Of a stretch of 64,000 nt of DNA, positions 27,709-60,910 are shown piece by piece (within the stretch, counting starts at the first letter, position 1; each line of letters begins with the position of its first letter). Origin of the DNA: an uncultured Thermoleophilia bacterium (GTDB lineage Bacteria; Actinomycetota; Thermoleophilia; Gaiellales; Gaiellaceae); contig CAVSGN010000008.1 in the NCBI GenBank assembly GCA_963727515.1, positions 20,146 to 84,145 of the forward strand, given 5' to 3'. Under the pieces are notes generated by a model. That model was not told the origin of the DNA. It saw only the letters and a list, made by a program, of their open reading frames with translations, and made no database searches. Made by a program: the position numbers and the translations under genes.

Positions 27709-27777
27709 CGCGTCATCGTCGCGGTCCGAGGGTGACCCTCGCAATCGTCCGTTCGGATGAGGGTCGGGGGGATCGCT

Positions 27778-28875: not shown

Positions 28876-29193
28876 TCAGCGGGAATGCCGCCTGGCCGCG
28901 AGCGCCACTTCCTCGTCGCTCGGGCCGCCGTGCTCGAGAGCCCTGAAGGCGATCAACACCGCGCGCGGATCACGGGCGTGGCGTTGCGCCGCCAGGGTCA
29001 GCGGCTCTCGAACGGCTCCGCCGCAGTGGGCGCACGGCCAGTAGATCCGCGACATCAGCTGCGCGGCCCGCCCGTCCGGATACATCCTCAGGATCTCGAG
29101 GATCGTCGTCGAGCCGCGGATCTCGCGGCGCAGGGTGTCGCCGTCGGCAACACCCTGCGCCGGGAGAAAGCCCGGGATCGCGGTTCGGGACAC
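28876..29193 (-). CDS. Small CxxC protein, DUF1858/redox-disulfide-domain-like
   Basis: TTILEILRMYP..AAQLMSRIYWPCAHCGGAVREPLTLAAQRH resembles the DUF1858 pattern; start codon uncertain. Confidence 0.6.
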   Translation of the reverse strand: MSRTAIPGFLPAQGVADGDTLRREIRGSTTILEILRMYPDGRAAQLMSRIYWPCAHCGGAVREPLTLAAQRHARDPRAVLIAFRALEHGGPSDEEVALAARRHSR

Positions 29194-29209
29194 GTCGGCG
29201 GGCGACGTT

Positions 29210-36116: not shown

Positions 36117-37036
<920 letters not shown>

Positions 37037-37037
<1 letters not shown>

Positions 37038-38254
37038 TGCCAACCGTCGTGCTCGTGGGAACGCTCGACACGAAAGGCGAGGAATATGCCTTCCTCGCCG
37101 ACCGAATCCGGGAGCAGGGGGTCGATGTCGTCCTCGTCGATGCAGGCATCATCGGGGCGCCGTTGGCGACTCCGGACGTGACGCGGGAGGAGGTCGCGGC
37201 GGCTGTCGGTGAAGACGTCGAAGCGCTCGCCGCGGCGGGTGACCGTGGCGCCGCGGTCGAGGCGATGTCGCGCGGCGCCGCCGAGATCGTCAAGCGCCTC
37301 TACGAGGATGGCAGGCTGGACGCTGTCGGGGGCCTCGGCGGTTCCGGCGGCTCGTCGCTTGCCACCTACGCGATGCGGCAGCTGCCGATCGGCGTCCCGA
37401 AGCTGATGGTCTCGACCGTCGCCTCGGGCGACACGAGCCCGTACGTCGGCTCGGTCGACGTGACGATGATGTACTCCGTCGTCGACATCGCGGGGATCAA
37501 CCAGGTGTCGGCGCAGATCATGACGAACGCTGCAGCGGCCCTCGCGGGCATGGCGAAAGCGATCGTGCCGCCGCTCGGCGAGAAGAAGCCGTTGATCACC
37601 GCGTCGATGTTCGGCGTCACGACGGCAGCGGTCACGACGGCGCGCGAGCGGCTCGAGGAGCTCGGGTACGAGGTTCTCGTCTTCCATCAGACGGGCGCCG
37701 GAGGCGGGTCGATGGAGGCGTTGATCGAGGCAGGCTTCATCGCCGGCTCGCTCGACGTGACGACGACCGAGTTCTGTGACCTGGTCGCGGGCGGCGCGCT
37801 CGTCGCCGTGCCGGAGCGTCTCGAGTCTGCCGGCAAGCGCGGGATCCCGCAGGTCGTCTCGCTCGGCGCGCTCGACATGGTCAACTTCGGCCCGATGGAC
37901 ACGGTTCCCGAGCGCTATCGCGACCGGAACCTCTACGTCCACAACCCGACGATCACCCTGATGCGGACGACACCGGACGAGTGCCGGGAGATCGCCCGGA
38001 TCATCGCCGGGAAGCTCAACGCGGCGACGGGCCCGACCGAGCTGTTCGTGCCGCTCGGGGGCGTGTCCGCGATCGCTACCGAGGGTCAGGTCTTCTACGA
38101 CGCGGAAGCGGACGCGGCGCTCTTCGGGACGATCCGTGAGCTCGTCGACACCTCCAAGGTGACGGTGCACGAGATCGACACGGACGTGAACGACCCGGCC
38201 TTCGCGCTCGCGATGGCGAACCGCCTGCACGAGCTGATCGAGGCGTCGGCATGA
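37037..38254 (+). CDS. Tm-1-like ATP-binding domain protein (UPF0261)
   Basis: [70 protein letters not shown]. Confidence 0.9.
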
Positions 38255-39072
38255 CCAGGTCCGAGGCACTCGCGCGCCTTCGCGCCCAGATCGCAGCGGG
38301 CAGCCCGATCATCGGGGCCGGCGCGGGCACCGGGCTCTCGGCGAAGCTGGCCGAGGCCGGTGGCGCCGACCTGATCATCATCTACAACTCGGGTCGCTAC
38401 CGCATGGGCGGGCGCGGCTCGCTCGCCGGGCTGATGCCCTACGGCGACGCGAACGAGATCGTCGTCGACATGTCGCGTGAGGTGCTACCGGTCGTCAAGC
38501 ACACGCCCGTGCTGGCCGGCGTCTGCGGCACCGATCCGTTCCGCCTGATGCCCGTGTTCATCGCCGAGCTGAAACGGATCGGGTTCAGCGGTATCCAGAA
38601 CTTCCCTACGGTCGGCCTGATCGACGGCACGTTCCGCGTCAATCTCGAGGAGACGGGCATGGGCTACGGCCTCGAGGTCGACGCCGTCAGGATCGCGCAC
38701 GAGCTCGATCTCCTGACCGCCCCGTACGTCTTCAGCGACGACGATGCCGCGGCGATGGCGGAGGCCGGGGCGGACGTTCTCGTCCCCCACATGGGGTTGA
38801 CGACGGGCGGCTCGATCGGCGCGGACACGGCGAAGACGCTCGACGACTGCGTCCCGTTGATCCAGGGGATGCACGACGCGGCGAAGCGCGTCAATCCCGA
38901 TGTCATCGTGCTCTGCCACGGCGGCCCGATCGCCGAGCCGGACGATGCTGCCTACATCCTCGCCCGCACGGAGGGCGTCGTCGGATTCTTCGGGGCCTCG
39001 TCGATGGAGCGGCTGCCGACCGAGGTCGCGATGACCGAGAACATGAAGCGCTTCAAGTCAATCCCCGTCTGA
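38251..39072 (+). CDS. TIM-barrel 'PEP hydrolase-like' protein (Tm-1 C-terminal homolog)
   Basis: [73 protein letters not shown]. Confidence 0.92.
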
Positions 39073-45616: not shown

Positions 45617-45706
45617 GCTCGGTCCGCTTGGTGCCGGGCCCGGTTGAACCGATGTTTGGCGTCTACTCGACGGCAATACCGTCGAGCCCGTCAACCACAA
45701 CCAGAG

Positions 45707-46045
45707 CTAGCAGGCGCCCGGTTCCGGCGTTCCCCCGGGCCCGACGAGGTGCTGGAGCACGACTCCCTGTGTCAGCTGGAGGCAGTAGGAGGTTGCGTCG
45801 GCCCGGACGAGCGTGAGCGGCGGCCGCACGGGCGTTCCCGCGTAGGTGCCGCTGACGGTGTACTCGGCCGCGAGGCTTGCCTCGGCGCCGGTGAACGCTG
45901 CGCGCATCGTCGTCGCGATCAGCGTCGAGGCGCTATCCGCGGCGCCGTTCGACGCGCTCTCGGTACCGGGCAGGATGATCCGCCAGCCGCCGAAGGCGAC
46001 GGCTGCAATCGTGAGGCCGAGAGTGAGATAGAGGCGTGCGGACAC
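45707..46045 (-). CDS. Hypothetical secreted/membrane-anchored protein with C-terminal Cys pair
   Basis: N-terminal hydrophobic helix (LYLTLGLTIAAVAFGGW); ends SYCLQL...GPGGTPEPGAC; start inferred. Confidence 0.6.
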   Translation of the reverse strand: MSARLYLTLGLTIAAVAFGGWRIILPGTESASNGAADSASTLIATTMRAAFTGAEASLAAEYTVSGTYAGTPVRPPLTLVRADATSYCLQLTQGVVLQHLVGPGGTPEPGAC

Positions 46046-46168
46046 GATTCTTGTATCGGCACGTACCGGTGAATTCTCAATCGATCGAACGCCCACTGAT
46101 CCCGGTCGGCAACCGTAACACCGGAGACAGCGAAAGGGCGTTTTGACGAATCAGATCGTGAGCATGGC

Positions 46169-47026
46169 TCAGCGCGGCACCTCGCCGGCGGGCGACGACC
46201 ACGTTCCTTCGCTCTCCTCCATGCGCCGCCACTCCTCGGCGACGTCGAGGTGGGTGGCGAACCAGACATCGGGGAAGCTCGCGATGTACGTGAGCAGCTC
46301 GTCCATCATCGCAATCCGCGGGTGCCTGCCGATACAGAACGGGTGAATCACGAGCAGGAAGCAGCCGCCGGCGGCATAGGACCCGTCGAACTCCGCCTTC
46401 CAGATCTCCAGCACCTGGGAGGGCGTCGCGTACCCCGACATGTACGGGAAGAAGTTGAAGAGGAAGTAGGGAGCGTCATCGAGCTCCCAGCTGACGGGCA
46501 GCTCGACGAAGTTGCGTAGCGGCCCGCCAAGGACAGGCACGCGGGGCCGGTAGGGCTCGTCGTGACCGAAGAGGCTCGAGTCATACGCGAATCCGAACTC
46601 CTCCAGAAGGTCCGCGGTGTTCGGGCCGAGCGCGAACGGCGGAGACCGGTTTCCGCGCGGCTTCGTGCCGAACATCTCCTCGATACGGCCGATCCCGCGG
46701 CGCATGAGCTCGCGCTCGTCGTCGATCGGGATGTCGAGCACGCTCTCGTGGTAGTAGCCGTGATAGCCGATCTCCACGTCGCGAGTGGCGATCTCGCGGC
46801 AGGCGTCGGGGTGATCGTCGATCACCTGCCCGGGCACCATGAAGGTCGCCGGAATCTGGTGCTTGTCCATCAGCTTCAGGATTCGCGGGATCCCCGCGCG
46901 AATGTCGTAGTCGCCGCGCGAAAGGGGGCTCGGCGTGTTCAGCTCGAAGGTTCCGCTCCAGAGCGTCTCGGCGTCGAAGTCAACCGAGATCGTGACTGCG
47001 CATCGGTACTTGTCCTTCCATTTCAT
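46169..47026 (-). CDS. Polysaccharide deacetylase-fold hydrolase (PuuE/HP0310-like subfamily)
   Basis: AVTISVDFDAE, ATFMVPG, EIGYHGYYHE, G.RSP, ELPVSWELDD.PYF, IHPFCIGR.PR. Confidence 0.85.
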   Translation of the reverse strand: MKWKDKYRCAVTISVDFDAETLWSGTFELNTPSPLSRGDYDIRAGIPRILKLMDKHQIPATFMVPGQVIDDHPDACREIATRDVEIGYHGYYHESVLDIPIDDERELMRRGIGRIEEMFGTKPRGNRSPPFALGPNTADLLEEFGFAYDSSLFGHDEPYRPRVPVLGGPLRNFVELPVSWELDDAPYFLFNFFPYMSGYATPSQVLEIWKAEFDGSYAAGGCFLLVIHPFCIGRHPRIAMMDELLTYIASFPDVWFATHLDVAEEWRRMEESEGTWSSPAGEVPR

Positions 47027-47048
47027 GGTCGCCTCCGTTCGAGCGTCG

Positions 47049-48480
47049 TCAGCCGCCGAGGTCGGTGAGGTCGGGTCGGCGGCTCTGGATATCGGCGGTG
47101 CCCGACCAGAACGCGTGTGCCGCGCCGAGCACGCGAGCGTCGGCCCACGGCGGACCGGTGAACTGGACACCCACGGGGATTCCGAGTTCGTCGAAGCCCG
47201 CGCGGACGGCGCAGGTCGGCAGCCCGGCCAGGTCCTGCGGGACGGTGTTGCTCATCACCAGTCTGCCTGAACTCGATCGGCGAGCCCAGGTGCTCGACGA
47301 GCTCTTCCCCGATCAAGCACGGTGGCCCGGCGGAGATCGGCGTCAGGATGAGATCGACCTCGCGAAAGGCGCGCGCGAACCCGGCTCGCAGCCGCTGACG
47401 GTCGGCGGCCGCGCGCAGGTATTCAACCGTGCCCTCGCTCGCCGCGAGCTCGAGGCGCGCTCGGACATCGGAACCGTACTCGTCGGCGCGTGCCGGGAAA
47501 AGGCCCGCTTCGCGGTGCGTGAACAGTGCCTCGGCCCGCTGCGTCGCGCCGAAGGTCTCGAACACCGTGGCTGCCTCCGCCAGGTCGATCTCGCCGACGT
47601 CGGCCGCCAGGCCTCGCGTCGCTCGGATGGCCGCGGCGAACACCGCGGCGACATCCGGCGCGAGCGGTATCGGATGAAGGTCGGAGCAGAGCCCGACGCG
47701 GAGACCCGAAAGGCCATGCGCGAGTGCTTTCTCGAGGTCTCCGAGGGCCACGTCCTCGGTGGACGCGTCGCCGGGGTCGTAGCCGGCGATCGCCTCGAGC
47801 AACAGCGCGGCGTCGGCGGGGGTTCGGGCCATCGGCCCGGGATGATCGAGGCTGTGCGCCAGCGGCCAGACCCCGGCGAGGCTGACACGTCCGTAGGTCG
47901 GCTTGAAGCCGACGGTGCCGCAGAACGACGAGGGCACGCGAATCGAGCCGCCCGTATCACTCCCGATCGCGAGCGGAACCTGATGGCTCGCGAGCGCGAC
48001 CGCCGACCCGCCGCTCGAGCCGCCCGAGATCCGATCCCGCGCCCACGGGTTTCGACTCGTTCGCAACAGCGTGTTGACCGACGAGATACCCCAGGCGAAC
48101 TCGTGCGTCTGCGTCTTGCCGACGAGGATTCCACCGGCGGCACGCGCCCGACGGACGGCCTCGGCGTCAGCGGCCGGCACGTGGTCGGAGAACATCGGTG
48201 ATCCGTAGGTCGTCGTGACACCCTCGGTGTCGAACAGGTCCTTGACGCCGAATGGGATTCCGGTGAGAGGCTCGAGGTCGCCGCCTCGAGCGAAACGCTG
48301 CTCGGCAGCCTCGGCCTCGGCTCTCGCTCGGTCGAGGCACAGTGCATTGAAGGCGGCCAGGCCGTCGTCGACCTGCGCGATCCGCTCCGCGCACGCCTCG
48401 ATCACGTCGACCGGCGAGACCTCGCGCCTGCGGTACGCATCGCGCAGCTCGACCGCCGAAAGTGCTGTCAGCTCGGTCAT
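47049..48480 (-). CDS. Amidase signature family protein (AtzE/GatA-like; frameshift about 47262)
   Basis: GVKDLFD, GKTQTHEFAWG, SGGSSGGSA, GSDTGGSIRVPSSFCG, DLAGLP..A, G.PVGVQ. Confidence 0.88.
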
Positions 48481-49499
48481 GGTGTCGACACCATCTCATG
48501 GGTGGGCCGTGTGTCGCCCGCGGCAGCCGCCCGGTCGCGGAGGATGACCTTGAGGCGTGCCGCGGCGTCGATCGCCCTGGTCTGAGGGACACTGACGCCG
48601 ACGAGCTCGGCGATCTCGATCACGGCGCCGCTCAGGCAATCGACTTCGAGAGGCTTGCCGTCGTCGTAGTCCTGCAGCATCGATGTTCGGTGGTCGCCGA
48701 CGGCGATCCCCGCTTCGAGTCGTCGTTCGATCGAAACGGGCATCGTGATCCCGAGCCGTTCGCCGACCGAAGCGCACTCCTCCATGATCGCGCGGGCGAG
48801 AACGACGGCCTCGGGCGCGAGCGCGAGCTCGCCAAGGGTCGCCCCGGTGACCATCGTGGTGGGGTTGAACGCGACGTTGCCGATCAGCTTGAGCCACAGC
48901 TGCTCGCGAATCTGGCTCTCGATCGGGCACTTGAGGCCCCCTGCGCCGAACGCGGCCGAGATCGCCCGGCAGCGCTCGCTCGTCGATCCGTCGGGCTCGC
49001 CGATCGCGAACCGTGTCCCTTCGATATGACGGACGACACCCGGCTCGACGAGCTCGGTCGCGGGATACGTGACGCAGCCGACGACCCGGGACCGATCGAT
49101 CGAGCTGGAGACGATCCCGTCCGGGTCCACACAGGTGACGATCGTTCCCTCGTGCTCGCCGCCGAACGAGTCGAAGAACCACCATGGCACGCCGTTCTGG
49201 GCCGGCAAGACGACCGTTTCGCTCCCGAGCAGCCCGCCGATCTCAGGGGCGAGCCCGGGGATGCTGTATGCCTTGAGCCCGATCACGACGACGTCGGCTT
49301 CCCGAAGCGCCTGCAGGTCGTCCGTCGCGGGGATGTGCGCCTGGAAGTCGCCGCGCGGCGAGAGGACGCGCACACCGTTCTCCCGAAGGGCGGCAAGCTG
49401 AGGCCCGCGGGCGATCAATACGACGTCCGAGCCGCCGCGGGCGAGCGCCGCACCGAGGTACGAGCCGATCGCGCCGCTTCCGAGGATCACGAATCGCAT
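48477..49499 (-). CDS. Ketopantoate reductase (PanE/ApbA) family protein, oxalyl-CoA reductase-like subfamily
   Basis: GSGAIG, GLKAY, AQNGVPWWFF, GTRFAIGEPDG, WLKL.GN..FNP, RTSMLQD..G..LE. Confidence 0.85.
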   Translation of the reverse strand: MRFVILGSGAIGSYLGAALARGGSDVVLIARGPQLAALRENGVRVLSPRGDFQAHIPATDDLQALREADVVVIGLKAYSIPGLAPEIGGLLGSETVVLPAQNGVPWWFFDSFGGEHEGTIVTCVDPDGIVSSSIDRSRVVGCVTYPATELVEPGVVRHIEGTRFAIGEPDGSTSERCRAISAAFGAGGLKCPIESQIREQLWLKLIGNVAFNPTTMVTGATLGELALAPEAVVLARAIMEECASVGERLGITMPVSIERRLEAGIAVGDHRTSMLQDYDDGKPLEVDCLSGAVIEIAELVGVSVPQTRAIDAAARLKVILRDRAAAAGDTRPTHEMVSTP

Positions 49500-49501
49500 C
49501 G

Positions 49502-51007
49502 TCAGTCCTCCCCGAAGTGGGCGGCCATTCTGGGCCGTTGAACCTTGCCGGTCGGCGTTCGAGGGATGCTCTCGACGATGTGGACGACGCTCGGCACCTT
49601 GAAGCCGGCCAGCTGCCCGGCACAGTGGGTCGTGACATCTGTCTCGGTCAGATCGCCCTGCGGGACGACGGCAGCACCGACGAGCTGACCGTACTTCGCG
49701 TCGGGAATCCCGTACGCGACCGCTTCGGCCACAGCCGGATGGGCCTTCAGGGCGGCCTCGATCTCGAGGGGCGAGATGTTCTCACCGCCGCGGATGATGA
49801 TCTCCTTGATCCGTCCTGTCAGGACGAGATACCCGTCCTCGAAGCGCCCCTGGTCGCCGGTCCGGAACCAGCCGTCACGAAACGACTCGGCGTTGGCCTT
49901 GTCGTTCGCGAGGTAGCCGGCCGTCACGCCCGGGCCGCGGATCACGACTTCCCCGACGTCGCCGTCCGGCACGGGGCGCCCGCTCTCGTCGACGACCTGG
50001 ATCTCCGCCCCCGTCGGGACGCCGACCGACCCGGGAACCCTGCGCCCCGGCGGAAGAGGATTCGCGGCCATCTCGTGGCTCGCTTCGGTCATTCCGTACG
50101 CCTCGAGGACAGGCACCCCGAGATACTCCTCCAACAACGTCAGCACCCGGGGCTCGAGCGCAGAGCTGCATGAGCGCGCGAATCGCAGTCTCGATCCCTC
50201 GAGCTCCGACGGTGCGCGCTCGAGCACCATCTGATGCAGAGTCGGGCTCGCCGAATACCAGGTGACGCCGTGATCGCGGAGCTGCGACCAGAAGCGACCG
50301 GGCCCAACCCTCCGTGGCACGATGACGGTCCCTCCGGCGGCAAGCTGCGCGAACGTCGACGCGACGAGACCGTGCACGTGAAAGAGCGGCATCGCGCAGT
50401 ACGAGACGTCCTTCGGGGTGAGCGAGTAATGGCGGGCGATCGACCGTGCGGATGCCACCAGGTTGCGATGGAGGAGGGGCACCTGCTTCGGTCTGCTCGT
50501 CGTGCCGCTCGTGTGAAGGAGAAGCGCGATGTCGTCCGGCGTCGCGACGGTGAGGTTCGGCTGTCGTGTCTCTCCTTCGAGCGAAACGAGCGTCGGAGGA
50601 GCGCCGTCCGTCAGCGTCACGTCGATGACGGGCACGGCGTCCCGCGCTGCGCCGCGGGCGGCCTCGCCCTCGCCCGCCCCGAGGAGGAGCACGCGCGGCT
50701 CGAGATCGTCGAGGTAGAACGCGAACTCGGTCTCGCTGTATGCGGGATTGAGCGGGGCGGCGGCAGCACCGAGGGAGGCGATTGCGAGGAGGATCTCCAC
50801 GAATTCTGGCCCGGGGGAGAGGGCGAGTGCGACGCAGTCGCCGCGCGTCACTCCGAACGAGGAGAGTCGCACGGCGAGAGCCTCGACCGCGTCGGTGAGC
50901 TCGCGGTAGGTGATCGGGTCGGCATCCTCGGGCGCGCGGAGTGCGGGACAGCCGTCGTCCTGCACGAGGATGTCCGAGAGCGTTGAGGTCTGGGCGATGT
51001 CGCTCAT
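49502..51007 (-). CDS. Acyl-CoA synthetase, oxalate-CoA ligase-like (AAE3/Pcs60 subfamily)
   Basis: AAAPLNPAY, LHTSGTTSRPKQVPL.H.NL, MPLFHVHGL, TWYSASPTLHQ, RFARSCSSAL, EAYGMTEASH.M..NPLPP, GSVG. Confidence 0.8.
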   Translation of the reverse strand: MSDIAQTSTLSDILVQDDGCPALRAPEDADPITYRELTDAVEALAVRLSSFGVTRGDCVALALSPGPEFVEILLAIASLGAAAAPLNPAYSETEFAFYLDDLEPRVLLLGAGEGEAARGAARDAVPVIDVTLTDGAPPTLVSLEGETRQPNLTVATPDDIALLLHTSGTTSRPKQVPLLHRNLVASARSIARHYSLTPKDVSYCAMPLFHVHGLVASTFAQLAAGGTVIVPRRVGPGRFWSQLRDHGVTWYSASPTLHQMVLERAPSELEGSRLRFARSCSSALEPRVLTLLEEYLGVPVLEAYGMTEASHEMAANPLPPGRRVPGSVGVPTGAEIQVVDESGRPVPDGDVGEVVIRGPGVTAGYLANDKANAESFRDGWFRTGDQGRFEDGYLVLTGRIKEIIIRGGENISPLEIEAALKAHPAVAEAVAYGIPDAKYGQLVGAAVVPQGDLTETDVTTHCAGQLAGFKVPSVVHIVESIPRTPTGKVQRPRMAAHFGED

Positions 51008-51008
51008 C

Positions 51009-52421
51009 TCAGAATCCGGCGGCGAAGCCGTCCTTTCGCGGGTCGGATCCCCCGACGAGACCGGCCTCGGTCGTCATGATCGCCTGGCCACCACCGAAGC
51101 TCACGGTATCCTCGTCGCGCTCGACGGCGTAGCCCTCGTGCTCGAGCTCCTCTGCTCGATCCCACAGGCCCTCCTCGAGGAATACCGTTCCGTTCTCGAG
51201 TCGAAATCGCGGGTGATCCAGTGCCGCCTGGGGATCGAGGCCCTCGTCGACGAGCGCCGAGACGAGCTGCATGTGCGCCTGGGCCTGGATGAAACCGCCC
51301 ATGACGCCGAACGGGCCAAGGAGCTTGCCGTCTCGGAGCAACAGCCCTGGGATGATCGTGTGGTATGGACGCCGACGCGGCTCGACGCCGCCGGAGATCG
51401 AAAAGCATGATCCGCGGTTCTGGAGAACGATCCCGGTGTCGGGCGCGACGATTCCGGATCCGAAGTTCCCGAACAGGCTCTGGATGAAGGACACCGCCAG
51501 GCCGTCGCCGTCGACCGCGCAGAGGTAGACGGTGCCGCCACCGGGCTCGGCCGCGAAGGCAGGCGCCGCGGTGAGTCGCGCACTGATCGCCTCGCTCGTC
51601 AGGAGGTCGCTCACGTCCGCTCCGTCCCGTACCCGGGCATGCGCATCCTCGAGCGCGAGGCTCGTGCAACGGACCTGGTTGGGCAAGGTGGGCTCGAGGC
51701 GATCGAGCAGCGCGAGCGCCTCGAGCGCCGCGACCCCCTGGGTCGGCGGCGGCAACTCGACGACCTCGACGCCTCGATAACCCACCCGTAGCGGCTCCGT
51801 CCAGGCCGCCTCGTAGTCGGCGAGATCGCTCTCTTCGAGCCACGACGCGGAGCACATCGCCTCGGCGACGCGCCCGGTGTAGATCGCGGACGGGCCCTCG
51901 TCGGCCAGCAGCCGGAGCGTTCCGGCGAGGTCGGGCAGGCGCACGCGCTCGCCGGCCTTCGGGGCGGGGCTCAGCTCGGGAGGGACTGCCGCTGCAGCCC
52001 AGCTCGCAGTTCTCGTCGAGCTTCCGTCCCAGGCGCCTGCGGTGTTCGGCGAGACGGCATACCCGCGATCGGCCACGTCGATCGCGTCGGCCAGGCAGGC
52101 GTCGAGGCCGAGACGTCCGAAGCGCGAGCTCAGCAGGTCCCATCCTGCGACGGCGCCCGGGACGGTTACGGACTGCGGGCCACGGTCGGCGACCGGGGCC
52201 TCGGGGTCGGCGCCTGCGGGGGCGGGACCGGCAGCGTCGAGCCCGATCGCCTCGCCGTCGTGCCACACGATCGCGAAGGCGTCTCCGCCGAGACCGGTGG
52301 ACATCGGCTCGGTCACGCAGAGGGTGGCGGCGGCCGCCAGCACGGCGTCGACGGCGTTGCCTCCTCGCTCGAACGCACGCAGGCCGGCGTATGTCGCTCT
52401 CTGCTGGCTGGTAGCGATCAT
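51009..52421 (-). CDS. Gamma-glutamyltransferase-family Ntn hydrolase (YwrD/HpxW-like)
   Basis: GGNAVDA, EPMSTGLGGD, VTVPGAVAGW, autoprocessing Thr in GTVYLCAVDGDGLAVSFIQS, LQNRG, RPYHTIIP, MGGFIQAQ, GSDPRKDG. Confidence 0.9.
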   Translation of the reverse strand: MIATSQQRATYAGLRAFERGGNAVDAVLAAAATLCVTEPMSTGLGGDAFAIVWHDGEAIGLDAAGPAPAGADPEAPVADRGPQSVTVPGAVAGWDLLSSRFGRLGLDACLADAIDVADRGYAVSPNTAGAWDGSSTRTASWAAAAVPPELSPAPKAGERVRLPDLAGTLRLLADEGPSAIYTGRVAEAMCSASWLEESDLADYEAAWTEPLRVGYRGVEVVELPPPTQGVAALEALALLDRLEPTLPNQVRCTSLALEDAHARVRDGADVSDLLTSEAISARLTAAPAFAAEPGGGTVYLCAVDGDGLAVSFIQSLFGNFGSGIVAPDTGIVLQNRGSCFSISGGVEPRRRPYHTIIPGLLLRDGKLLGPFGVMGGFIQAQAHMQLVSALVDEGLDPQAALDHPRFRLENGTVFLEEGLWDRAEELEHEGYAVERDEDTVSFGGGQAIMTTEAGLVGGSDPRKDGFAAGF

Positions 52422-52478
52422 CGCCTCGAGCGCGACGGCCGGGCGACGTCCGAAGGAGTAACGAAACGCCACTGCCTG

Positions 52479-52637
52479 TCAGCCCGGGCCTCTCCGCCCG
52501 CGTCGACCAACGCGGTGCGCGATCGTTCCGATGAGTCGCGAAGCTTGCACCGTTCCCTTCGGACGTGTCCGTTGACAGGCCACCGAGCTGCCGTCCGCGC
52601 TCTCCGTGGCGCCGTGTTCGTACTCTCTACCGTACAA
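52479..52637 (-). CDS. Possible small protein (52 aa)
   Basis: Perfect SD AAGGAGGT 4 nt before a TTG, ORF ends before the GGT-like gene; no family recognised. Confidence 0.35.
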   Translation of the reverse strand: MYGREYEHGATESADGSSVACQRTRPKGTVQASRLIGTIAHRVGRRGRRGPG

Positions 52638-52705: not shown

Positions 52706-53449
52706 ATGTTCGACCACGTCACGATTCGTGCCTCCGATCGCCACGCGTCCGAGGCGATCTACGGAACCGTCCTCGGAGAGCTCGATATCGTCTCGACGTC
52801 CGCCAACGCGGGGCTCGTCGAGTGGCAGGACTTCTCGCTTCTCCAGGCGTCGGACGAGCGCCCGGTCACCGAGCGCCTCCACGTCGGGTTTGCGGCACCG
52901 AGTCGCGCTCACGTCGATGCGTTCTGGCGTGCGGGCAGGGCGAGCGGGCTCCAGGATGCGGGCGCGCCCGGCGAGCGACCACAGTACAAGCCGGACTACT
53001 ACGGTGCCTTCCTTCTCGACCCGGACGGGAACAGCATCGAGGCCGTCCACCACAGCTCCGTCCGCACGGACGGCGGGATCGACCATCTCTGGCTGCGCAC
53101 CGACGACCTCGTGGCGTCGCGGGCGTTCTACGCGCTCGTTGCTCCTCTCGCAGGCCTCGGGATCCGCGATCTCGGTCCCGAGCACGTCCAGGTCCTCGGC
53201 ACGAGCGCGTCCTTCTCCGTCGTCCCCGGCCGACCGACCCGCGGGCTTCACCTGGCCTTCCCCGCGACCACGAACGCAGCCGTCGATGCGTTCCACGAGA
53301 GTCTCGTCGGCGCCGGCTTTCGTGAGGACGGCCCGCCGGGCGCGAGACCCGAGTATCACCCCGGCTACTACTGCGCCTTCGTGCTCGATCCCGAGGGCAA
53401 CAGCGTCGAGCTCGTCAACCACAACCGGGCGCTCGGCCATCCCTCCTAG
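52706..53449 (+). CDS. VOC/glyoxalase family protein with two tandem domains
   Basis: FDHV...HVGFAA..RA.VD.F...G.RPQY...YYGAFLLDPDGN.IEAV, then repeated (DHL...HLAFPA...YYCAFVLDPEGNSVELV). Confidence 0.9.
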   Translation: MFDHVTIRASDRHASEAIYGTVLGELDIVSTSANAGLVEWQDFSLLQASDERPVTERLHVGFAAPSRAHVDAFWRAGRASGLQDAGAPGERPQYKPDYYGAFLLDPDGNSIEAVHHSSVRTDGGIDHLWLRTDDLVASRAFYALVAPLAGLGIRDLGPEHVQVLGTSASFSVVPGRPTRGLHLAFPATTNAAVDAFHESLVGAGFREDGPPGARPEYHPGYYCAFVLDPEGNSVELVNHNRALGHPS

Positions 53450-53486: not shown

Positions 53487-54917
53487 ATGGCCGAGTTGCG
53501 GGAAACGCTGCATCACGTTGCTGATCTGATCGCGGACTATCGCGAGATCCTCCCCGATCAGGACGTGGCGCCGTCTCTGGGACGGGCCGCCGTTCGTGAA
53601 GCACTGTCACGTGAGCTGCCGGAGGGCCCCTCGCCGGTCGACGCCGTCGTCGACGAGCTCGTTGCAGGAGCGAAGCCCGGGCTCATGGCCTCCGCCGGGC
53701 CACGGTACTTCGGGTTCGTGATCGGTGGTTCTACCGACGCCGCGCTGGCGGCGGATCTCCTGACTGTCGGCTGGGACCAGTGTGCGTACAACGAAGCGCT
53801 CTCGCCCGCGGCGCTTGCCTTCGAGGACGTTGCCGGCATGTGGCTCAAGGAGCTACTCGGGCTTCCCGCATCGGCGTCTGTGGGCTTCACAACGGGTGGG
53901 CAGGGAGCGAACACGGTGGGGTTGGCAGCGGGGCGCTGGAAGGTGCTCGATCAGGTCGGCTGGGACGTGGGCCGGGACGGTCTCTGCGGTGCCCCTCGCC
54001 TGAGGGTCGTGGCGAACGCCGAGCGTCATGCCACGATCGATCGGAGTCTCCGCCTGCTCGGGCTCGGCGAAGGCGCAATCGAAGAAATCCCCGCACTCGC
54101 GAGCGGCGCGATGGACACCGACGCACTGCGTCAGGCGTTGCGCTCGCAGCCGGACACGCCGACGATCGTCTGCGCGCAGGCCGGCAACGTGAACACCGGA
54201 GCCTGCGACGATCTGACCGCCGTGACGTCGGCCGTTGCCGGGACGGGAGCGTGGGTCCACGTCGACGGTGCGTTCGGGCTCTGGGCTGCGGCCAATCCCG
54301 CCACGAGGCACCTCGTCGCCGGAATCGAAGCGGCCGACTCGTGGGCGTGCGACGGGCACAAGTGGCTGAACGTCCCCTACGACTCGGGGTTCGTGTTCTG
54401 CGCGCATCCGGACGTCCATGTCATCGCGATGGAGTACACGGCCTCGTATCTCACGGGACAGGTCGCCGGCCGCACGTTCGGTGGTGGCGATTTCGTGCCG
54501 GAGTCGTCGCGACGCGCACGGGGATTCGCGGCGTGGGCGGCACTCCGCGCGCTCGGCCGTTCGGGAGTGGCCGACCTCGTCGAGAGGTCGTGTGCACTGG
54601 CCCGACTGGGGGCGACGCTCCTGGGTGATCTCGACGGCGTCGAGGTGGTCAATGAGGTGGTGCTGAACCAGATCCTCGTGCGCGTCGGAGACACCGAGCT
54701 CACGAATCGGGTCGAGCAGCTGGTTCAGGCGGATGGGACGTGCTGGCTCGGAGCGACGACCTGGCGCGGCGAGCGGCTGCTGCGGATCTCGGTGTCGAAC
54801 TGGTCGACGACGGAGCGGGACGTCGAGCTCACCGTCGGCGCCATCGCGCGGGCACGCGCCGAGGCGGTCGCCGCGACCTCGACCCCTGGCGCCCGAGGAA
54901 CCGGCGCCGTCAGCTGA
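53487..54917 (+). CDS. Group II PLP-dependent decarboxylase (aromatic amino acid decarboxylase family)
   Basis: PRYFGFVIGG, WDQ, HATIDRSL, AGNVNTGA.D, WVHVDGAFGLW, DSW..DGHKWLNVPYDSG, SRRARG. Confidence 0.9.
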   Translation: MAELRETLHHVADLIADYREILPDQDVAPSLGRAAVREALSRELPEGPSPVDAVVDELVAGAKPGLMASAGPRYFGFVIGGSTDAALAADLLTVGWDQCAYNEALSPAALAFEDVAGMWLKELLGLPASASVGFTTGGQGANTVGLAAGRWKVLDQVGWDVGRDGLCGAPRLRVVANAERHATIDRSLRLLGLGEGAIEEIPALASGAMDTDALRQALRSQPDTPTIVCAQAGNVNTGACDDLTAVTSAVAGTGAWVHVDGAFGLWAAANPATRHLVAGIEAADSWACDGHKWLNVPYDSGFVFCAHPDVHVIAMEYTASYLTGQVAGRTFGGGDFVPESSRRARGFAAWAALRALGRSGVADLVERSCALARLGATLLGDLDGVEVVNEVVLNQILVRVGDTELTNRVEQLVQADGTCWLGATTWRGERLLRISVSNWSTTERDVELTVGAIARARAEAVAATSTPGARGTGAVS

Positions 54918-55761
54918 ACGCCCACTGGTCCCAGTCGGCTACCGGCTCGTATCCGATCCTGGCGTAGATCGCGTTCGACGTGGGGTTCGCGAGATCGGTG
55001 AAGAGGAAGCAGAACCCGAGACCGGTTGCGAGTCGCTCGGCGGTCAAATCGGCGACGAGGGAGGTCGCATAGCCACGGCCGCGGTGCTCGGGTGGGGTGT
55101 AGACGGGGCCGACCCTGGTGCCGTTCGCGGTCGGATTCCCGAAGGCCGCGAGCGACACCGGCCCGTTGTCGTCCCAGAGGAGCCATACGCCGTGGGGATC
55201 GGCCTCGCGGCGCCGGTACATGGCCGCGGTGTATTCTCGATGTGGCGTTCCGCCGAGGGCTTCCTCGGAGAACCGGTCGAGCCAGTCGAGAACGGTCGTG
55301 AGGTCATCGCTCCCGGCCCTGCGCATCCTGCCGGAGGCGCGGGGAAGCTCGCGCACGACCGATGCGGCATGGACACGCTGCCTGATCGCAACGCGCGCCC
55401 GGGCGCCGGTCAGTTCCACCCAGGCGGACGCAAATCGCGCGACGACCTCGGCGGGGCCGACCGCTCCAGGGAGGCCGGGGTGCATGTCGAGAACGGCCTC
55501 CGCGACGGTGTCGACGGCCTCGAGCGAGTCGAAGCGGCTGAGGACGACGCCGTGGGGCGGTGTCCGAAGGAGACAGCCGACGATGTTGCCCGCATCCTCG
55601 ACGACGACGAACGTCGGGTCGAAGCCGTAGAGCTGTGGTTCGTCGAGCAGGCGACCGAGCAGGCCGAGAGGCAGGTTGTGCTCGGGCTCGTGCGCGGTGA
55701 GGAACGAACCGGTCCGATCGAGAAACGCGGCTGCGGTGTCGATCCGGCGTGGCTGCGGCAT
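54910..55761 (-). CDS. GNAT family N-acetyltransferase (FR47-like C-terminus)
   Basis: RVGPVYTPPEHRGRGYA, LFTDLANPTSNAIY.RIGY. Confidence 0.9.
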   Translation of the reverse strand: MPQPRRIDTAAAFLDRTGSFLTAHEPEHNLPLGLLGRLLDEPQLYGFDPTFVVVEDAGNIVGCLLRTPPHGVVLSRFDSLEAVDTVAEAVLDMHPGLPGAVGPAEVVARFASAWVELTGARARVAIRQRVHAASVVRELPRASGRMRRAGSDDLTTVLDWLDRFSEEALGGTPHREYTAAMYRRREADPHGVWLLWDDNGPVSLAAFGNPTANGTRVGPVYTPPEHRGRGYATSLVADLTAERLATGLGFCFLFTDLANPTSNAIYARIGYEPVADWDQWAFS

Positions 55762-55788: not shown

Positions 55789-57303
55789 TCAGCCGGCTTC
55801 GTCGACGACCAGCCGGTCGTACGCGGGCAGCGTGAGGAACTCGACGTAGTCGGGCCGTGTCGCGATGCTCTCGAAGATCGTCCGCGCCTCGTCGTAACCG
55901 GGGCCGAGCGCCGCCATCTCCTCGTTCGTGATCCGGAGGACGTCGTCCGCCGCAAAGCGGTCGTGGTGGAGCCACTGCCAGATCTGGGAGCGGCTGATCT
56001 CTGCGGTCGCGGCGTCCTCCATGAGATTGTTGATCGCGACGGCGCCCGAGCCGTCGAGCCAGGCGGCGAGATACTGGATCCCGACCGAGACATTGTTGCG
56101 CAGGCCGTCCTCGGACGCCTCGCCGGGAGTTGCCGCGATGTTCAGGAGGTCGGCCGCGGTGACGGAGACGTCGTCGCGCTGCCGGTCTATCTGGTTCGGG
56201 CGGTCACCGAGCACCGCGTCGAAGGCCTCGTAGGCTGTGGGCACGAGGTCGGGGTGGGCGACCCAGGTGCCGTCGAACCCCTGTGATGCCTCGCGCTCCT
56301 TGTCCTCGCGCACCTTGGCGAGCGCGACGGCGTTCACCTCGGCGTCGCGACGCGAGGGAATGAACGCCGCCATGCCTCCCATCGCGAACGCGCCGCGGTG
56401 GTGACACGTCTTGACGAGAAGCTCGCAGTAGCTCCGCATGAACGGCACCGCCATCGTCACCGCGCCGCGGTCCGGCAGGACCATCTCCGGCCGGTGCCCG
56501 AGCTTCTTGATCACGCTGAAGATGTAGTCCCAGCGGCCGGCGTTGAGCCCGGCGGAGTGCTCGCGGAGCTCGTGGAGGATCTCGTCCATCTCGAACGCCG
56601 CGAGGATCGTCTCGATCAGGACCGTCGCCTTGATCGTCCCCTGTGCGACGCCGAGCCGCTCCTGCGACCAGGTGAAGACGTCGTTCCAGAGCCGTGCCTC
56701 GAGATGCGACTCGAGCTTCGGGAGGTAGAAGTAGCGCCCGTTGCGGCCGTGGTTGCGGAAGAAGTAGAGACCGAAGTCGAACAGCGACCCGGACATCGGA
56801 GCGCCGTCGACCTCGAAGTGCCTCTCGTCGAGATGCCAGCCGCGCGGGCGCACGAACAGCACCGCCGGATTCTCACCGAGTGCGTACTGCTTCTCGCCCG
56901 TGTCGAGCGAGATCGTCCGCTCGAGGGCATCCGTGAGGTTGCGCTGGCCGTCGATGCAGTTGAACCACGTCGGCGAGTTCGAGTCCTCGAAGTCGGCCAT
57001 GAAGACGCGGGCGCCGGAGTTCAGCGCGTTGATCACCATCTTGCGGTCGACCGGGCCGGTGATCTCGACTCGCCGGTCGGCGATCTCGTCCGGGGTGGGC
57101 GCGACGCGCCAGTCACCAGCGCGAACGCTTGCCGTTTCCGGCAGGAAATCCGGGAGCTCCCCCGCGTGGAGGCGCTCGAGCCGTTCGGCTCTCCGAGCGA
57201 GCAGCTCGGCCCGGCGGTCGCCGAACTCCCGCTGCAGGTCGACGAGAAAGGCCTGCGCCTCCTCGGTGAGAACGTCGGTGGCGTCGGTCATCGTCTCGAT
57301 CAT
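55789..57303 (-). CDS. aceB: Malate synthase A
   Basis: [77 protein letters not shown]; SD GGAGG. Confidence 0.95.
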
Positions 57304-59600
57304 CTCAGTTCCTCCGTTAGCGTTGCATCGAGTGCCACAGCGAGCCGGTCGGCATGCTGCTCCGCGAACACGAGCGGTGGCCGGATCTTGATCACGTTTC
57401 CGAGCGGGCCGGTCGCGCCGACGAGGATGCCACGACGGCGAAGACCGTTCGCGACCGCCGTGCCGATGTCCGACCGTCCGGTCGAGTCGCGGTCGAGCTC
57501 GACGCCCACGAAGAGCCCCGGGCCGCGCACGTCCCTGATCGCGGCCTGCCCGGCAGCGATCTCGGAGAGCCGCCCTCGGAGGTAGGAGCCCACCCGCTCG
57601 GCCCGCTCGGCGAGTTGTTCGCGCTCGATCACGTCGAGCACGGCCGTCCCGACCGCTGCAGCGACCGGTGACCCTGCGAACGTCGAGAAGAAATGCCAGC
57701 CGGCGGCGAACTCGGCAGCGATCGTGGGCGTCGTGACGACGGCGCCCATCGGGTGTCCGTTACCCATCGGCTTCCCGAGGGTGACGATGTCGGGCACGAC
57801 CCCGTCCTGCCTGAAGCCCCAGAACGGCGTCCCGACCCTGCCGAAGCCGGCCTGAACCTCGTCGGCGAGGCAGAGGGCGCCGACGGCCCGGGCTCGACCG
57901 TACGCGGCGCGCAGGTAGCCGGGAGGGACGGCGAAGATGCCGTCGCTCGAGAAGACGTCGTCGCAGACGAGCAGCGCCGGGTCGTGCCCTCGCCCGCGCA
58001 GGCGCGCAAAGGCCTCGTCGACCTCGTCGGACACCCGCGCGGCTGCATTCGGCGCTCCGAGCGTCGCCGCTCCGCCGATTCGCGCCACCCACGGCTCGAG
58101 CGCGTCGGGCCCGAGCTCTTCCGGTGACAGGGCCGCCGTCGCGGCGGTCGTCCCGTGGTAGGCATGCTCGGTGATCACGACCCCGCGGTTCCCGGTCACG
58201 GCCCGCGCGATCTGGATCGCGACGTCGTTCGCCTCGCTGCCGGAGTTGACGAACATCACGACCGAGAGCTCGTCCGGCAACAACGCCACGAGCCGATCGG
58301 CGTAGGCGGCGACCTCGTCCACGAGGTAGCGCGTGTTCGTGGTGAGTCGCCTCGCCTGACCCGAGAGAGCGGCCGTCACGCGGGGATGTGCGTGCCCCAC
58401 CTGTGGCACGTTGTTGTACGCGTCGAGCAGCTCGTTCCCGTCGGCGTCCGTCAGCCAGACGCCGCTGCCCGAGACGAGGCGAACCGGCTCGTCATAGGTG
58501 AGATCGAGCGCCGGCCCGAGCCGCTCCCGGCGCCGCGCGAGGCTCTCCTGGAGCGACGAGCCCGCGCGACGGGGAATGCCGCACGCCTCCTCGAGCGCCG
58601 CAGCGAGCGTCGCGGGGCCGCGGTCGTCGATGCGCCCGAGGGTCTCGAAGCAGTCCTCCTGGTCGGCCAGGATGTAGGCGACGTTGTCGGGGTGGAGCTC
58701 GGCCCGCCAGGCGGAGATCAGCACCGACTGCGCCATGCGCGCGCCCGCGAGCTCGGGCAACAATGCCACCTCGCCCCGCGTGAGCGGTCGGACCGCGTGA
58801 TATGCCGTCGCGACCTCGACGAATGGATCGAGCGGGTCGTCGGCGCCGAATGCCTGGTAGGCGGCGGTGATCGCGGGATCGATGACCGTCGGCGCATGCA
58901 CGAGGTCGCCGAAGTCGACGATCCCGGCCAGGCGCTCGGGGTCGCTCCGGTCGACGAGCACGTTTCCCGGGTTGACGTCCCCGTGGATCGCCGATGACGG
59001 CACGAGCTCGAGCGCCGGTGCGATGACGGTGTCGAACCGGTCGAGCCAGCGCTCGACGAGCGACCGGCGGCCCGCGTCGGAGATCATCTCGAGCTTCGGG
59101 CGCAGCTCGGCCAGCAGGGTGACGTCCCAGAGAATGGGCCGCCCCGCCAGCGGGTGCGTGAAGCCTGCGAGCGCCTGGTCGAGGCGTGCGACGGCCGCAC
59201 CCACGGCGCGTCGCGTCGTGGGCGAGACGGGGCCGGACGGAAACGGGCTTCCGTCGATCAGGTCGACGAGCTGCACGGCATGGCCGACGCCCTCGATCGT
59301 GACCGAGCCGGTCGGCCGGCGGCCGACCGTCCGCCGCGGTTGCGGGATCGGCAGGCTCGTGTCCGCCCTGAGGGCGTGCTCCATGGCGAGCACCTGCATC
59401 TCGACGACGTCTGCAGGATCGGCCGGGTTGCCGACCTTGAGGACGTACGATCCCGCCGTCCCGTCGATCCGGAAGTTGCGGTCACGCTCGCCGTCGAGCG
59501 GCGTCGCGTCACCGTCGACATCGAAGACGGTGCGAGCGATCTCGGCGGCGAGCTCAGGGGGGACGTCCGGCGGCCGCGCTTCGAGGACGTCGTCGCTCAC
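57300..59600 (-). CDS. Fusion: APH/choline-kinase-like phosphotransferase + class III PLP aminotransferase/phospho-lyase
   Basis: N-half [29 protein letters not shown]; C-half [56 protein letters not shown]. Confidence 0.9.
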
Positions 59601-59647
59601 GGCGCCCCACGATAACGGTTCCCCACCCGCCCGAGCGACGGCGGTGG

Positions 59648-60910
59648 CTATGCCGCGCTCATCTCCGGCGTGAGGGGGTCGCCTTCGAACTGCTTCTCCT
59701 CGGTCGAGCCGCTGAGGGCCAGGGTCGATGCCGTCCCGCCGGAGATCGTTTGCAGGATCTCGTCGAAGTAGCCGGCGCCGACCTCGCGCTGGTGACGCGT
59801 TGCCGTGTAGCCCTCGCTCTCGAGCTCGAACTCGCGTTCCTGGAGCCGCACGTAGGCCGGCATCGCCTCGTTGCCGTAGCCGCGCGCGAGCTCGAACATG
59901 GAGAGGTTGGCGGCGTGGAAGCCTGCCAGCGTGATGAACTGGAAGCGGTAGCCGAGCTTCGCGAGGTCGCGCTGGAACGCCGCGATCTGCGCGTCGCTCA
60001 GGTGCTTGCGCCAGTTGAACGACGGTGAGCAGTTGTACGCGAGCAGCTGGTCGGGGAACTTCTCGTGGATCGCCGCGGCGAACTGCTCGGCCTCGGCCAT
60101 GTCGGGCGTTGCGGTCTCGCACCAGATAAGGTCGGAGTAGGGCGCGTATGCGAGGCCGCGGGCGATCGCAGCCTCGATGCCGTCCCGTACGCGGAAGAAG
60201 CCCTCCGTGGTGCGCTCGCCCGTGCAGAACTCCCGGTCGATCTCGTCGATGTCACTCGTCAGGAGCGTGGCCGAGAGCGCATCGGTGCGGGCGACGACGA
60301 GCGTCGGCACGTCGGCGACGTCGGCGGCGAGCCGGGCTGCGACGAGCGTTCGGATGTGCTGCGCGGTCGGCACGAGCACCTTGCCGCCGAGGTGGCCGCA
60401 CTTCTTCTCCGAGGAGAGCTGGTCCTCGAAATGCACGGCAGCGGCGCCGGCCTCGATGAACGACTTCATCATCTCGTAGGCGTTCAGCGGACCGCCGAAA
60501 CCGGCCTCTGCGTCGGCGACGATCGGTGCGAGCCAGTGGGTCGAATCGTCTCCCTCGGCGTGCGTGATCTGGTCCGCGCGCAGAAGGGCGCTGTTGATCC
60601 GCTTCACGAGGGCCGGGGCGCTGTTTGCCGGATAGAGGCTCTGGTCAGGGTAGGTGTTCCCGGAGAGGTTTGCATCTGCTGCGACCTGCCAGCCGGAGAG
60701 GTAGATCGCCTTCAGTCCGGCCTTCACCATCTGGACTGCCTGGCCGCCGGTCATCGCCCCGAGGGCGGGAACCCACTCCTCCTCTGCGAGGAGCGTGCGC
60801 AAGCGTGTCGCGCCGAGGCGGGCCAGGGTGTGCTCAATCGTGACGGAGCCGCGGAGACGCTCGACGTCCTCCTGGCTGTAGGGGCGCTCGATCGTGTCGG
60901 TCGGGCTCAT
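59648..60910 (-). CDS. aceA: Isocitrate lyase
   Basis: [67 protein letters not shown]. Confidence 0.97.

Follow-up and report, generated by a model that had tools for sequence, protein, structure and literature searches.

A block of five co-directional minus-strand genes (46169-52472), contained in a 64-kb window of contig CAVSGN010000008.1 from an uncultured Thermoleophilia bacterium, very probably encodes a route from oxalate through oxalyl-CoA to glyoxylate, carried by an AMP-forming ligase and a PanE/ApbA-family reductase. The other three genes specify a GGT-like Ntn hydrolase, an amidase-signature amidohydrolase and a deacetylase-fold hydrolase; together the five would probably salvage the nitrogen as well as the carbon of a small oxalic-acid amide or ureide, ending in glyoxylate. 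The window, meaning here the whole 64-kb stretch that was analysed, has about 70% G+C, and its closest protein relatives come from metagenome bins of Gaiellales, Thermoleophilia and Solirubrobacterales. A pathway of this kind had been suggested in an earlier note on this DNA (the original prediction); as regards the ligase, the reductase and the unity of the operon its central idea stands, for the GGT-like enzyme it is right in a loose sense only, and for the amidase and the deacetylase it is wrong in detail.

Regarding the ligase, it contains the Pfam domains AMP-binding and AMP-binding_C, and its PDB matches are headed by oxalate-CoA ligases: AtAAE3 from Arabidopsis (5ie0, 8e-126, 424 bits), LsOCS from Lathyrus (6qjz, 2e-124, 419 bits) and yeast Pcs60 (8aff, 1e-115, 390 bits); malonyl-CoA synthetase, the next family, follows about 200 bits lower (2e-64, 221 bits). 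The residues of the oxalate pocket have been listed for AtAAE3, with Ser289 and His319 conserved solely in oxalate ligases (PMC8905533). According to a HMMER alignment, seven of the eight AtAAE3 pocket residues are identical in the window ligase, including both oxalate-ligase-specific ones, which correspond to its S281 and H311; by position, H214, V215, H216, C288, S289, M314, H319 and K500 of AtAAE3 are retained and A313 is replaced by G. The top NCBIfam model, "FadD7 family fatty acid-CoA ligase", gives 439 bits, under its cut-off of 650, and the substrate is therefore not named by routine annotation. The kinship with oxalate-CoA ligases, already part of the original prediction, is confirmed by the ranking of the structural matches and by the pocket, and the protein is predicted, with good support, to be an AAE3/Pcs60-type oxalate-CoA ligase.

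As for the reductase, it aligns at full length with PanE2 of Methylobacterium extorquens (39% identity over 327 amino acids, E 1e-85), an enzyme used in vitro as an oxalyl-CoA reductase (PMC8411744); the PanE2 sequence (WP_015822665) was taken from a codon-optimised cassette in the supplement of PMC12686821. The match to E. coli PanE (1ks9) is weak and partial (8.5e-11). Automatic annotation calls the window protein "2-dehydropantoate 2-reductase", which is also the name carried in NCBIfam by model NF005089, with which it scores 387 bits (cut-off 223); PanE2 itself matches this model with 435 bits, as does the Streptomyces homologue of locus L080 with 452, and therefore the name says nothing about the real substrate. 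The identity with PanE2 and the shared model uphold the relationship that had been claimed.

The genes found around reductase homologues were scanned in the 80 best genome matches, with one genome per species. In 32 of the 80 loci, the reductase is preceded on its own strand by an AAE3-type ligase that is 44-59% identical to that of the window and ends less than 200 bp upstream, usually at 30 bp or less; these loci belong to Actinomycetota, Chloroflexota (Dehalococcoidia), Acidobacteriota (three orders), Verrucomicrobiota (Verrucomicrobiia), Methylomirabilota and one metagenome-assembled genome labelled Proteobacteria. At L001, L005, L110 and L156, the place directly upstream of the reductase is taken by a true formyl-CoA transferase (Frc; TIGR03253 615-684 bits, cut-off 504). 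Streptomyces L080 has a longer array, in the order Oxc/HACL-family thiamine enzyme, Frc, ADP-forming acyl-CoA synthetase, MFS transporter, GntR/FCD regulator, KAS III-type enzyme, reductase, and formate-dehydrogenase-like molybdenum and Nuo51-like subunits; the reductase loci of other Streptomyces, of Kutzneria and of mycobacteria also have genes for Frc or for oxalyl-CoA decarboxylase (Oxc) close by. Finally, the Dehalococcoidia loci L031 and L025 have the order malate synthase, ligase, reductase, GGT-like gene, and in the Vicinamibacterales locus L078 malate synthase follows 2.3 kb after the reductase. Three distinct oxalyl-CoA-forming contexts and a glyoxylate consumer are thus found around the homologues, and the assignment of the window protein as a PanE2-type oxalyl-CoA reductase is a well-supported prediction. 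A homologue search of the 64-kb window returned neither oxalyl-CoA decarboxylase nor formyl-CoA transferase, as the original prediction had stated.

The five genes are packed as tightly as had been described: in transcription order, the gaps are 1 bp between the GGT-like gene and the ligase, 2 bp between ligase and reductase, -4 bp between reductase and amidase, and 22 bp between amidase and deacetylase (Table 1). One translationally coupled operon, as gap sizes of this order lead one to expect, is the best explanation of this layout. The first gene is taken to start at GTG 52472 because homology with 2nlz begins at residue 4 of this longer form, and because the 93%-identical relative in locus L081 is also called at 487 amino acids; the upper limit given at first, 52421, is an internal ATG. 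Related loci were mapped by tblastn together with precomputed gene calls, and in the comparison with L081 the DNA is 91.3% identical and collinear from 46128 to 52575 only, with diverging flanks on either side; therefore, the five genes and about 100 bp upstream of them behave as one unit. The upstream stretch is likely the promoter region; a consensus scan of the block ends detected no sigma-70-like site and no intrinsic terminator.

Table 1. Operon genes and other features placed in the window, with positions counted from its first base.
Feature	Position	Strand	Remark
GGT-like Ntn hydrolase	51009-52472	-	487 aa
AMP-forming ligase, AAE3/Pcs60/FadD7 type	49502-51007	-	501 aa
PanE/ApbA-family reductase, PanE2 type	48477-49499	-	340 aa
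Amidase-signature amidohydrolase	47049-48480	-	476 aa after removing base 47264
Deacetylase-fold (CE4-like) hydrolase	46169-47026	-	285 aa
Upstream non-coding stretch, travels with the five genes	52473-52575	-	collinear with L081
Extra single base breaking the amidase frame	47264		
Malate synthase A, outside the operon	55789-57303	-	Pfam MS_TIM-barrel 3e-104
Isocitrate lyase	59648-60910	-	near malate synthase

At the two edges of the block, neighbouring genes of the window have counterparts on the other side of the cluster in L081. A small conserved open reading frame (ORF) of 129 amino acids with no Pfam match (45668-46110, minus strand) lies just downstream of the deacetylase gene, and its homologue (84% DNA identity) is found at L081 413-856, on the opposite side of the cluster; this switch of side indicates a rearrangement breakpoint at the block edge. 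On the other side, a two-domain VOC/glyoxalase-fold gene (52706-53449, plus strand) is divergent from the operon, L081 has a 48%-identical copy of it at the other end of the block, and smaller VOC genes are near the L083 cluster and near the malate synthase-ligase-reductase-GGT genes of L031; the gene at 52706-53449 may be linked in function to the operon.

Regarding the amidase, its frame shifts near 47262-47268 in the window, with one part of the Pfam Amidase match in each of two frames, a lesion on which the original prediction was silent. A 151-base short-read contig from an independent salt-marsh sample (run X1) is identical to 47200-47351 except that base 47264 is missing; once this base is removed, the protein can be aligned gap-free with the intact L081 amidase (92.4% identity), the two sharing the sequence IEFRRLVMSN where the lesion lies. 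The short-read contig without the base and the collinearity of the repaired frame point to one inserted base, and on these grounds the reading of the amidase as a pseudogene was rejected. The extra base is probably an assembly error; it may instead be a real defect of this one strain. The same five-gene cluster occurs in L082, a contig from ENA, where the gene calls break up or shorten each of the genes for GGT, ligase and amidase; these defects are consistent with indel errors of a long-read assembly, and the extra base of the window may have the same cause.

The GGT-like protein belongs to Pfam G_glu_transpept (9e-99), and the original prediction related it to HpxW, the oxamate amidohydrolase of Klebsiella; this relationship is borne out in part. 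The predicted Thr nucleophile, T314, is aligned to the residue with which the HpxW small chain begins, and at the positions of R114, N411, Q430 and D433 of E. coli GGT, which we take from the structural literature to hold the amino-acid end of the gamma-glutamyl group, the window protein has A, F, R and C and HpxW has S, Y, R and A, so that the gamma-glutamyl-binding residues are lost in both. On the other side, identity with full-length HpxW is only 35%, and 2nlz, the best PDB match (3e-93, 316 bits), is much closer than the HpxW chains (1e-26 and 1e-23, about 184 bits over both). The HpxW and HpxY sequences used here came from a Klebsiella record in a plasmid collection. No homologues of HpxX and HpxZ were found in the window or in the related loci, where tblastn with HpxZ gave no match longer than 100 residues. 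The protein is therefore best described as HpxW-like, and not as an HpxW orthologue; its proposed role would be that of an amidohydrolase on oxamate or another oxalyl-amide, releasing oxalate and ammonia. A canonical GGT or glutathione hydrolase was considered and rejected, given the absence of any signal peptide upon inspection of the N-terminus, the replaced binding residues and the score of 229.9 with the GGT model TIGR00066, under its cut-off of 357.85; a plain glutathione hydrolase thus appears unlikely.

In L009, L025 and L031, too, a GGT-like gene adjoins the ligase-reductase pair, and its place beside such pairs in three unrelated arrangements lends indirect support to the proposed hydrolysis of oxamate. 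In a separate case, the Paraburkholderia plasmid AP028202.1 (L159, 633100-636125) has a 66%-identical HpxW orthologue, annotated as oxamate amidohydrolase, with a GntR regulator before it and, directly after it, a gene that carries the annotation oxalate/formate MFS antiporter, but no hpxXYZ; this two-gene unit may convert oxamate to oxalate and export it, and the presence of the antiporter fits oxalate as the product of this group of enzymes.

As for the amidase, the Pfam Amidase match (2.5e-97, plus a C-terminal fragment) and the Ser-cisSer-Lys motifs FGVKD, GGSSGGS and GSDTGGSIR place it in the amidase-signature family. The AtzE/HpxY-like identity first proposed for it could not be sustained: it reaches 304 bits with the AtzE family model NF006631 (cut-off 461) and 302 with TIGR02715 (cut-off 426), where HpxY has 773 and 683, and GatA is about as close, with 296 bits in NCBIfam (317 for PRK06169) and, in PDB, 250 bits as compared with 229 for AtzE (6c62). 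Identity with HpxY is 33%. Beside the gene there is no space for a small partner subunit of the HpxX/AtzG kind, since the neighbouring gaps are only -4 and 22 bp, and the tblastn search with HpxZ gave no match longer than 100 residues to point to an NTF2-like HpxZ/AtzH partner. The proposed role for this putative hydrolase is the cleavage of an oxalyl ureide or amide such as oxalurate.

A second amidase-family ORF (371 amino acids) is present within 20673-24270 and matches residues 71-346 only of the operon amidase, so it is possibly truncated or also frameshifted. Beside it are an enoyl-CoA hydratase (21831-22640) and an AMP-binding ligase (22741-24270), and genes of these same two families directly adjoin the five-gene block in L081.

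The deacetylase-fold protein (Pfam Polysacc_deac_1) is closest in PDB to 3rxz from M. smegmatis (2e-52), then to HpPgdA from H. pylori (3qbu, 2e-35) and to PuuE (3cl6, 4e-21). It has the D-x-D and H-x3-H motifs of an Asp-His-His metal site, as do 3rxz and HpPgdA, whereas PuuE and the imidase-like 3s6o have H-x3-W; with the PuuE model TIGR03212 it scores 87.5, against a cut-off of 424.6. PuuE and the imidase BpIH, which show that this fold can open cyclic ureides and imides, have a metal-independent Glu-His-Trp site (PMC11424739), and HpPgdA, for which no substrate is known, has a closed active site of small-molecule type and was inactive on allantoin (PMC3084791). The motif and the model score exclude a PuuE allantoinase, so that the link with PuuE drawn in the original prediction is not supported in that form, and the enzyme is, judging by its motifs and relatives, a metal-type small-molecule amidohydrolase of the 3rxz/HpPgdA subgroup. 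Its N-terminus, MKWKDKYR, has on inspection no hydrophobic leader or signal peptide, and the protein is unusually conserved, with 76-90% identity among the 120 matches listed. It is proposed to act first, opening the ring of a cyclic oxalyl ureide or removing an N-oxalyl group.

From these families we infer the catalytic activities, the order of the hydrolyses and the entry substrate of the following scheme. Through cleavage of C-N bonds, three cytoplasmic amidohydrolases would leave free oxalate and ammonia (or urea). The deacetylase-fold enzyme would, as a best guess, convert parabanate, or a related cyclic oxalyl ureide, into oxalurate; the amidase would transform oxalurate either into oxamate, NH3 and CO2, as HpxY does, or into oxalate and urea, like ureidomalonase; and the GGT-like enzyme would hydrolyse oxamate to oxalate and ammonia. 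The AAE3-type ligase would then activate oxalate to oxalyl-CoA with ATP and CoA, and the PanE2-type reductase would reduce oxalyl-CoA to glyoxylate, probably with NADPH, after which glyoxylate would enter central metabolism, for example through the malate synthase of Table 1. Because the ligase pocket is oxalate-specific, the hydrolases would have to deliver oxalate without a redox step; oxalate alone forms no simple cyclic imide, and therefore the simplest natural precursors would be oxamate, oxamide, oxalurate and parabanate. Parabanate is formed from uric acid by singlet oxygen and hydrolyses to oxalurate (PMC5703782). Parabanate, oxalurate or oxamate is thus the best guess for the entry substrate.

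The Asp-His-His site also leaves room for another front end on the same oxalate-to-glyoxylate half, in which the deacetylase would be a "de-oxalylase" acting on an N-oxalyl amino acid or diamine, or in which the hydrolases would degrade oxamide, with the amidase and the GGT-like enzyme handling the remaining amide groups. CE4-type enzymes with this site normally remove N- or O-acyl groups, and the window protein has it in place of the ring-opening site of PuuE. Likewise, L087 and L105 pair the deacetylase with ligase and reductase, with no amidase or GGT-like gene in the available sequence, and peptide-type ABC transporters (SBP_bac_5) adjoin the deacetylase in L152 and L153. However, L087 and L105 are short contigs and the absent genes may lie past their ends, and the presence of the amidase near the deacetylase in 13 of 22 well-flanked loci suggests a multi-step hydrolysis of one nitrogen-rich molecule; moreover, we know of no characterised de-oxalylase with the deacetylase fold, which counts against this possibility. 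It is held to be a rather unlikely one, and the sequential opening of an oxalyl ureide or amide is preferred.

The synteny is not unique to this genome, so that the refuting condition set on this point in the original prediction fails. The order of the window recurs in L081, where the reductase is 95% identical, and in L082 (79%), and a scan of metagenomes with the deacetylase-fold protein, followed by tblastn mapping, revealed the same families in shuffled orders. L083, a Gaiellales bin, has M20 peptidase, ligase, reductase, amidase and deacetylase, followed by hydantoinase A and B. The order deacetylase-GGT-ligase-reductase is found in L124 and L147, and in L101 with the amidase divergent from it; the amidase is also divergent from deacetylase-GGT in L098, L102 and L109, and L091 has GGT-amidase-deacetylase. 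Shorter arrangements are ligase-reductase-deacetylase (L087) and deacetylase-ligase-reductase (L105), and in L005, L110 and L156 a hydantoinase pair is located between the deacetylase and Frc-reductase, with a divergent amidase also present in L110 and L156. Distant paralogues occur on an Actinomycetes chromosome (L009), where a deacetylase (39% identical) is followed by ligase, reductase and a GGT-like gene (37%).

To put figures on this recurrence, 22 well-flanked loci were used, each with a deacetylase orthologue of at least 75% identity and at least 6 kb of flank. Within 8 kb of the deacetylase, the amidase was found in 13 of the 22, the reductase in 9, and the GGT-like gene and the ligase in 6 each; at least one of these four partner families was present in 17. 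The genomic linkage of the five families is thus real and not a matter of chance, but it is facultative, and recurrence in shuffled orders in related metagenomic contigs is the reason for regarding the five as linked in function. The proposed scheme fits this co-occurrence, in which deacetylase-amidase is the commonest core, ligase-reductase or Frc-reductase ranks second and the GGT-like gene is optional; the minimal operon of Dehalococcoidia, with malate synthase, ligase, reductase and GGT, agrees with the scheme as well.

The same survey bears on the idea that deacetylase and amidase form a separate pathway for a cyclic amide, imide or hydantoin such as creatinine, lying beside an independent oxalate-assimilation module of GGT-like gene, ligase and reductase through the clustering typical of catabolic islands. 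L151, L152, L104 and L157 have the pair but neither ligase nor reductase, hydantoinase A/B, creatininase, cyclase and M20 genes are often its neighbours, and the Dehalococcoidia malate synthase-ligase-reductase-GGT genes have no deacetylase or amidase next to them. Nevertheless, the amidase overlaps or abuts the reductase, inside one tight operon, both in the window (by the -4 bp overlap) and in L081-L083; the deacetylase is joined to ligase-reductase or Frc-reductase units in at least seven arrangements; and the five-gene block moves as one unit, as its collinearity with L081 indicates. This separation of the two halves is therefore considered improbable. In L156, L110 and L005, two hydantoinase A/B sets (one fused, about 1290 amino acids), a creatininase, two cyclase-family genes and an M20 peptidase surround both the deacetylase-amidase pair and the Frc-reductase pair, and these loci look like an island for the breakdown of cyclic amides or hydantoins tied to oxalyl-CoA reduction.

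Taking the automatic names at face value, the block would be a chance set of neighbours, namely a fatty-acid-CoA ligase, a ketopantoate reductase serving CoA synthesis, a GGT that cleaves glutathione, a generic amidase and a deacetylase for peptidoglycan. The NCBIfam names of the ligase and reductase models are in line with this, and JGI calls the relatives of the deacetylase peptidoglycan/xylan/chitin deacetylases. Still, the ligase keeps the oxalate pocket, PanE2 too matches the "ketopantoate reductase" model, the neighbourhoods of the reductase family consistently relate to oxalate, and the synteny recurs in shuffled orders; in addition, neither the GGT-like protein nor the deacetylase has a signal peptide, and the former lacks the residues that bind the gamma-glutamyl group. 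A set of unrelated neighbours is accordingly very improbable.

Several observations weigh against the salvage of an oxalyl ureide or amide by the whole operon. The link is facultative, with the reductase in only 9 and the GGT-like gene in only 6 of the 22 deacetylase loci; L151 and L152 have the amidase alone beside the deacetylase, and L090, L095, L106, L116 and L154 have none of the four partners. At some loci, deacetylase and amidase are found in the company of ATP-dependent hydantoinase, creatininase and M20 genes, a context that could point to a different class of cyclic amide. The enzymes of the front end raise points of their own: the GGT-like protein is much nearer to the uncharacterised 2nlz than to HpxW; the amidase is under the AtzE/HpxY cut-off, has no HpxX/HpxZ partners and is frameshifted in the window as given; and the active site of the deacetylase is not PuuE-like, its 3rxz/HpPgdA relatives having no known substrate and HpPgdA being inactive on allantoin.

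Outside the operon, malate synthase was confirmed close to the cluster, as the original prediction had it; the distance is 3.3 kb. It is possible that it consumes the glyoxylate of the operon, and its position also has an ordinary explanation, because isocitrate lyase sits beside it. Between these two genes is an ORF of 940 amino acids (57300-60122) that fuses a phosphotransferase (APH) with a class-III aminotransferase; it overlaps isocitrate lyase by about 470 bases, so its true start has to lie further downstream. The stretch that separates the operon from malate synthase contains a pyridoxal-phosphate-dependent decarboxylase (53487-54917, plus strand) and a GNAT acetyltransferase (54910-55761, minus strand), for which no link to the operon was seen in the related loci. 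Elsewhere, the window encodes a molybdenum subunit of the xanthine dehydrogenase family (25405-27744), a response regulator of LuxR type, a LarA-like protein (29091-30575), an ABC transporter of the branched-chain type (30.8-36.1 kb) and a pair of UPF0261 and PEP-hydrolase-like genes (36764-39072), for none of which a connection with the operon was made.

With respect to known systems, each of the enzyme families, and the reductive use of oxalyl-CoA, is known already. The M. extorquens PanE2 system has the same reductase family (39% identity, NF005089) and leads from oxalyl-CoA to glyoxylate for assimilation. In a 2012 study of that organism, oxalyl-CoA is said to come from the Frc/Oxc system, which also conserves energy. 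The window differs in that it has no Frc/Oxc, that translational coupling joins the reductase to an ATP-dependent AAE3-type ligase, and that the operon also includes three amidohydrolases. The ligase is of the same family as AAE3 of Arabidopsis and Lathyrus and as yeast Pcs60/Fat2 (1e-115 to 1e-126), with the same oxalate-pocket residues; in plants, oxalyl-CoA made by AAE3 is decarboxylated toward CO2, whereas the bacterial ligase is paired with a reductase that would keep both carbons. An artificial combination of Pcs60 and PanE2 has been constructed in yeast for the production of glycolate (PMC12686821).

The front end is best compared with hpxWXYZ of Klebsiella, where HpxY is an oxalurate amidohydrolase and HpxW an oxamate amidohydrolase, acting from oxalurate through oxamate to oxalate (PMC3560190, PMC12625717, PMC5270733). 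As in Klebsiella, an amidase-signature protein and a GGT-like protein with replaced gamma-glutamyl-binding residues are encoded in one operon; unlike in Klebsiella, identities are low (33% for the amidase, 35% for the GGT-like protein), the amidase falls outside AtzE/HpxY and HpxX and HpxZ are missing from the window. In turn, the Klebsiella hpx locus has no ligase, reductase or deacetylase-fold gene. As for PuuE and BpIH, the window deacetylase differs from them in its Asp-His-His metal motif and is nearer to 3rxz and HpPgdA. Finally, in the oxidative pyrimidine pathway barbiturase and ureidomalonase yield urea and malonate: a cyclic ureide is opened, an amidase-signature enzyme frees a dicarboxylate and a CoA ester follows, all one carbon longer than proposed here; the ring-opening enzyme is of another family and the product is malonate, not oxalate, so this is an analogy only. 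In the literature collection that was searched, itself incomplete, no description was found of a natural ligase-reductase operon or of its amidohydrolase-linked form.

In conclusion, the operon may tentatively be seen as one form of a widespread, oxc/frc-free assimilation of oxalate by ligase and reductase, sometimes with malate synthase, to which Thermoleophilia-like actinobacteria would have added a front end of three hydrolases for a product of purine oxidation, namely parabanate, oxalurate or oxamate; if so, the orphan HpPgdA/3rxz group of the deacetylase fold would gain a new class of substrate. Recent reviews point out that surveys based on oxc/frc markers underestimate oxalotrophy (PMC13409138, PMC10192776). 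A ligase-reductase module labelled "fatty-acid-CoA ligase" and "ketopantoate reductase" would escape such surveys, and yet it is present in 32 of the 80 best genome matches, drawn from several phyla of soil and sediment; the natural pair is also the same combination that metabolic engineers assembled for glycolate (PMC12686821). The cluster provides a testable hypothesis on the substrates of two orphan groups, HpPgdA/3rxz and the 2nlz/YwrD-type GGT-like proteins, and the link with three amidohydrolases suggests that oxalyl amides or ureides from purine oxidation would be a combined source of nitrogen and carbon for actinobacteria of soils and marshes.

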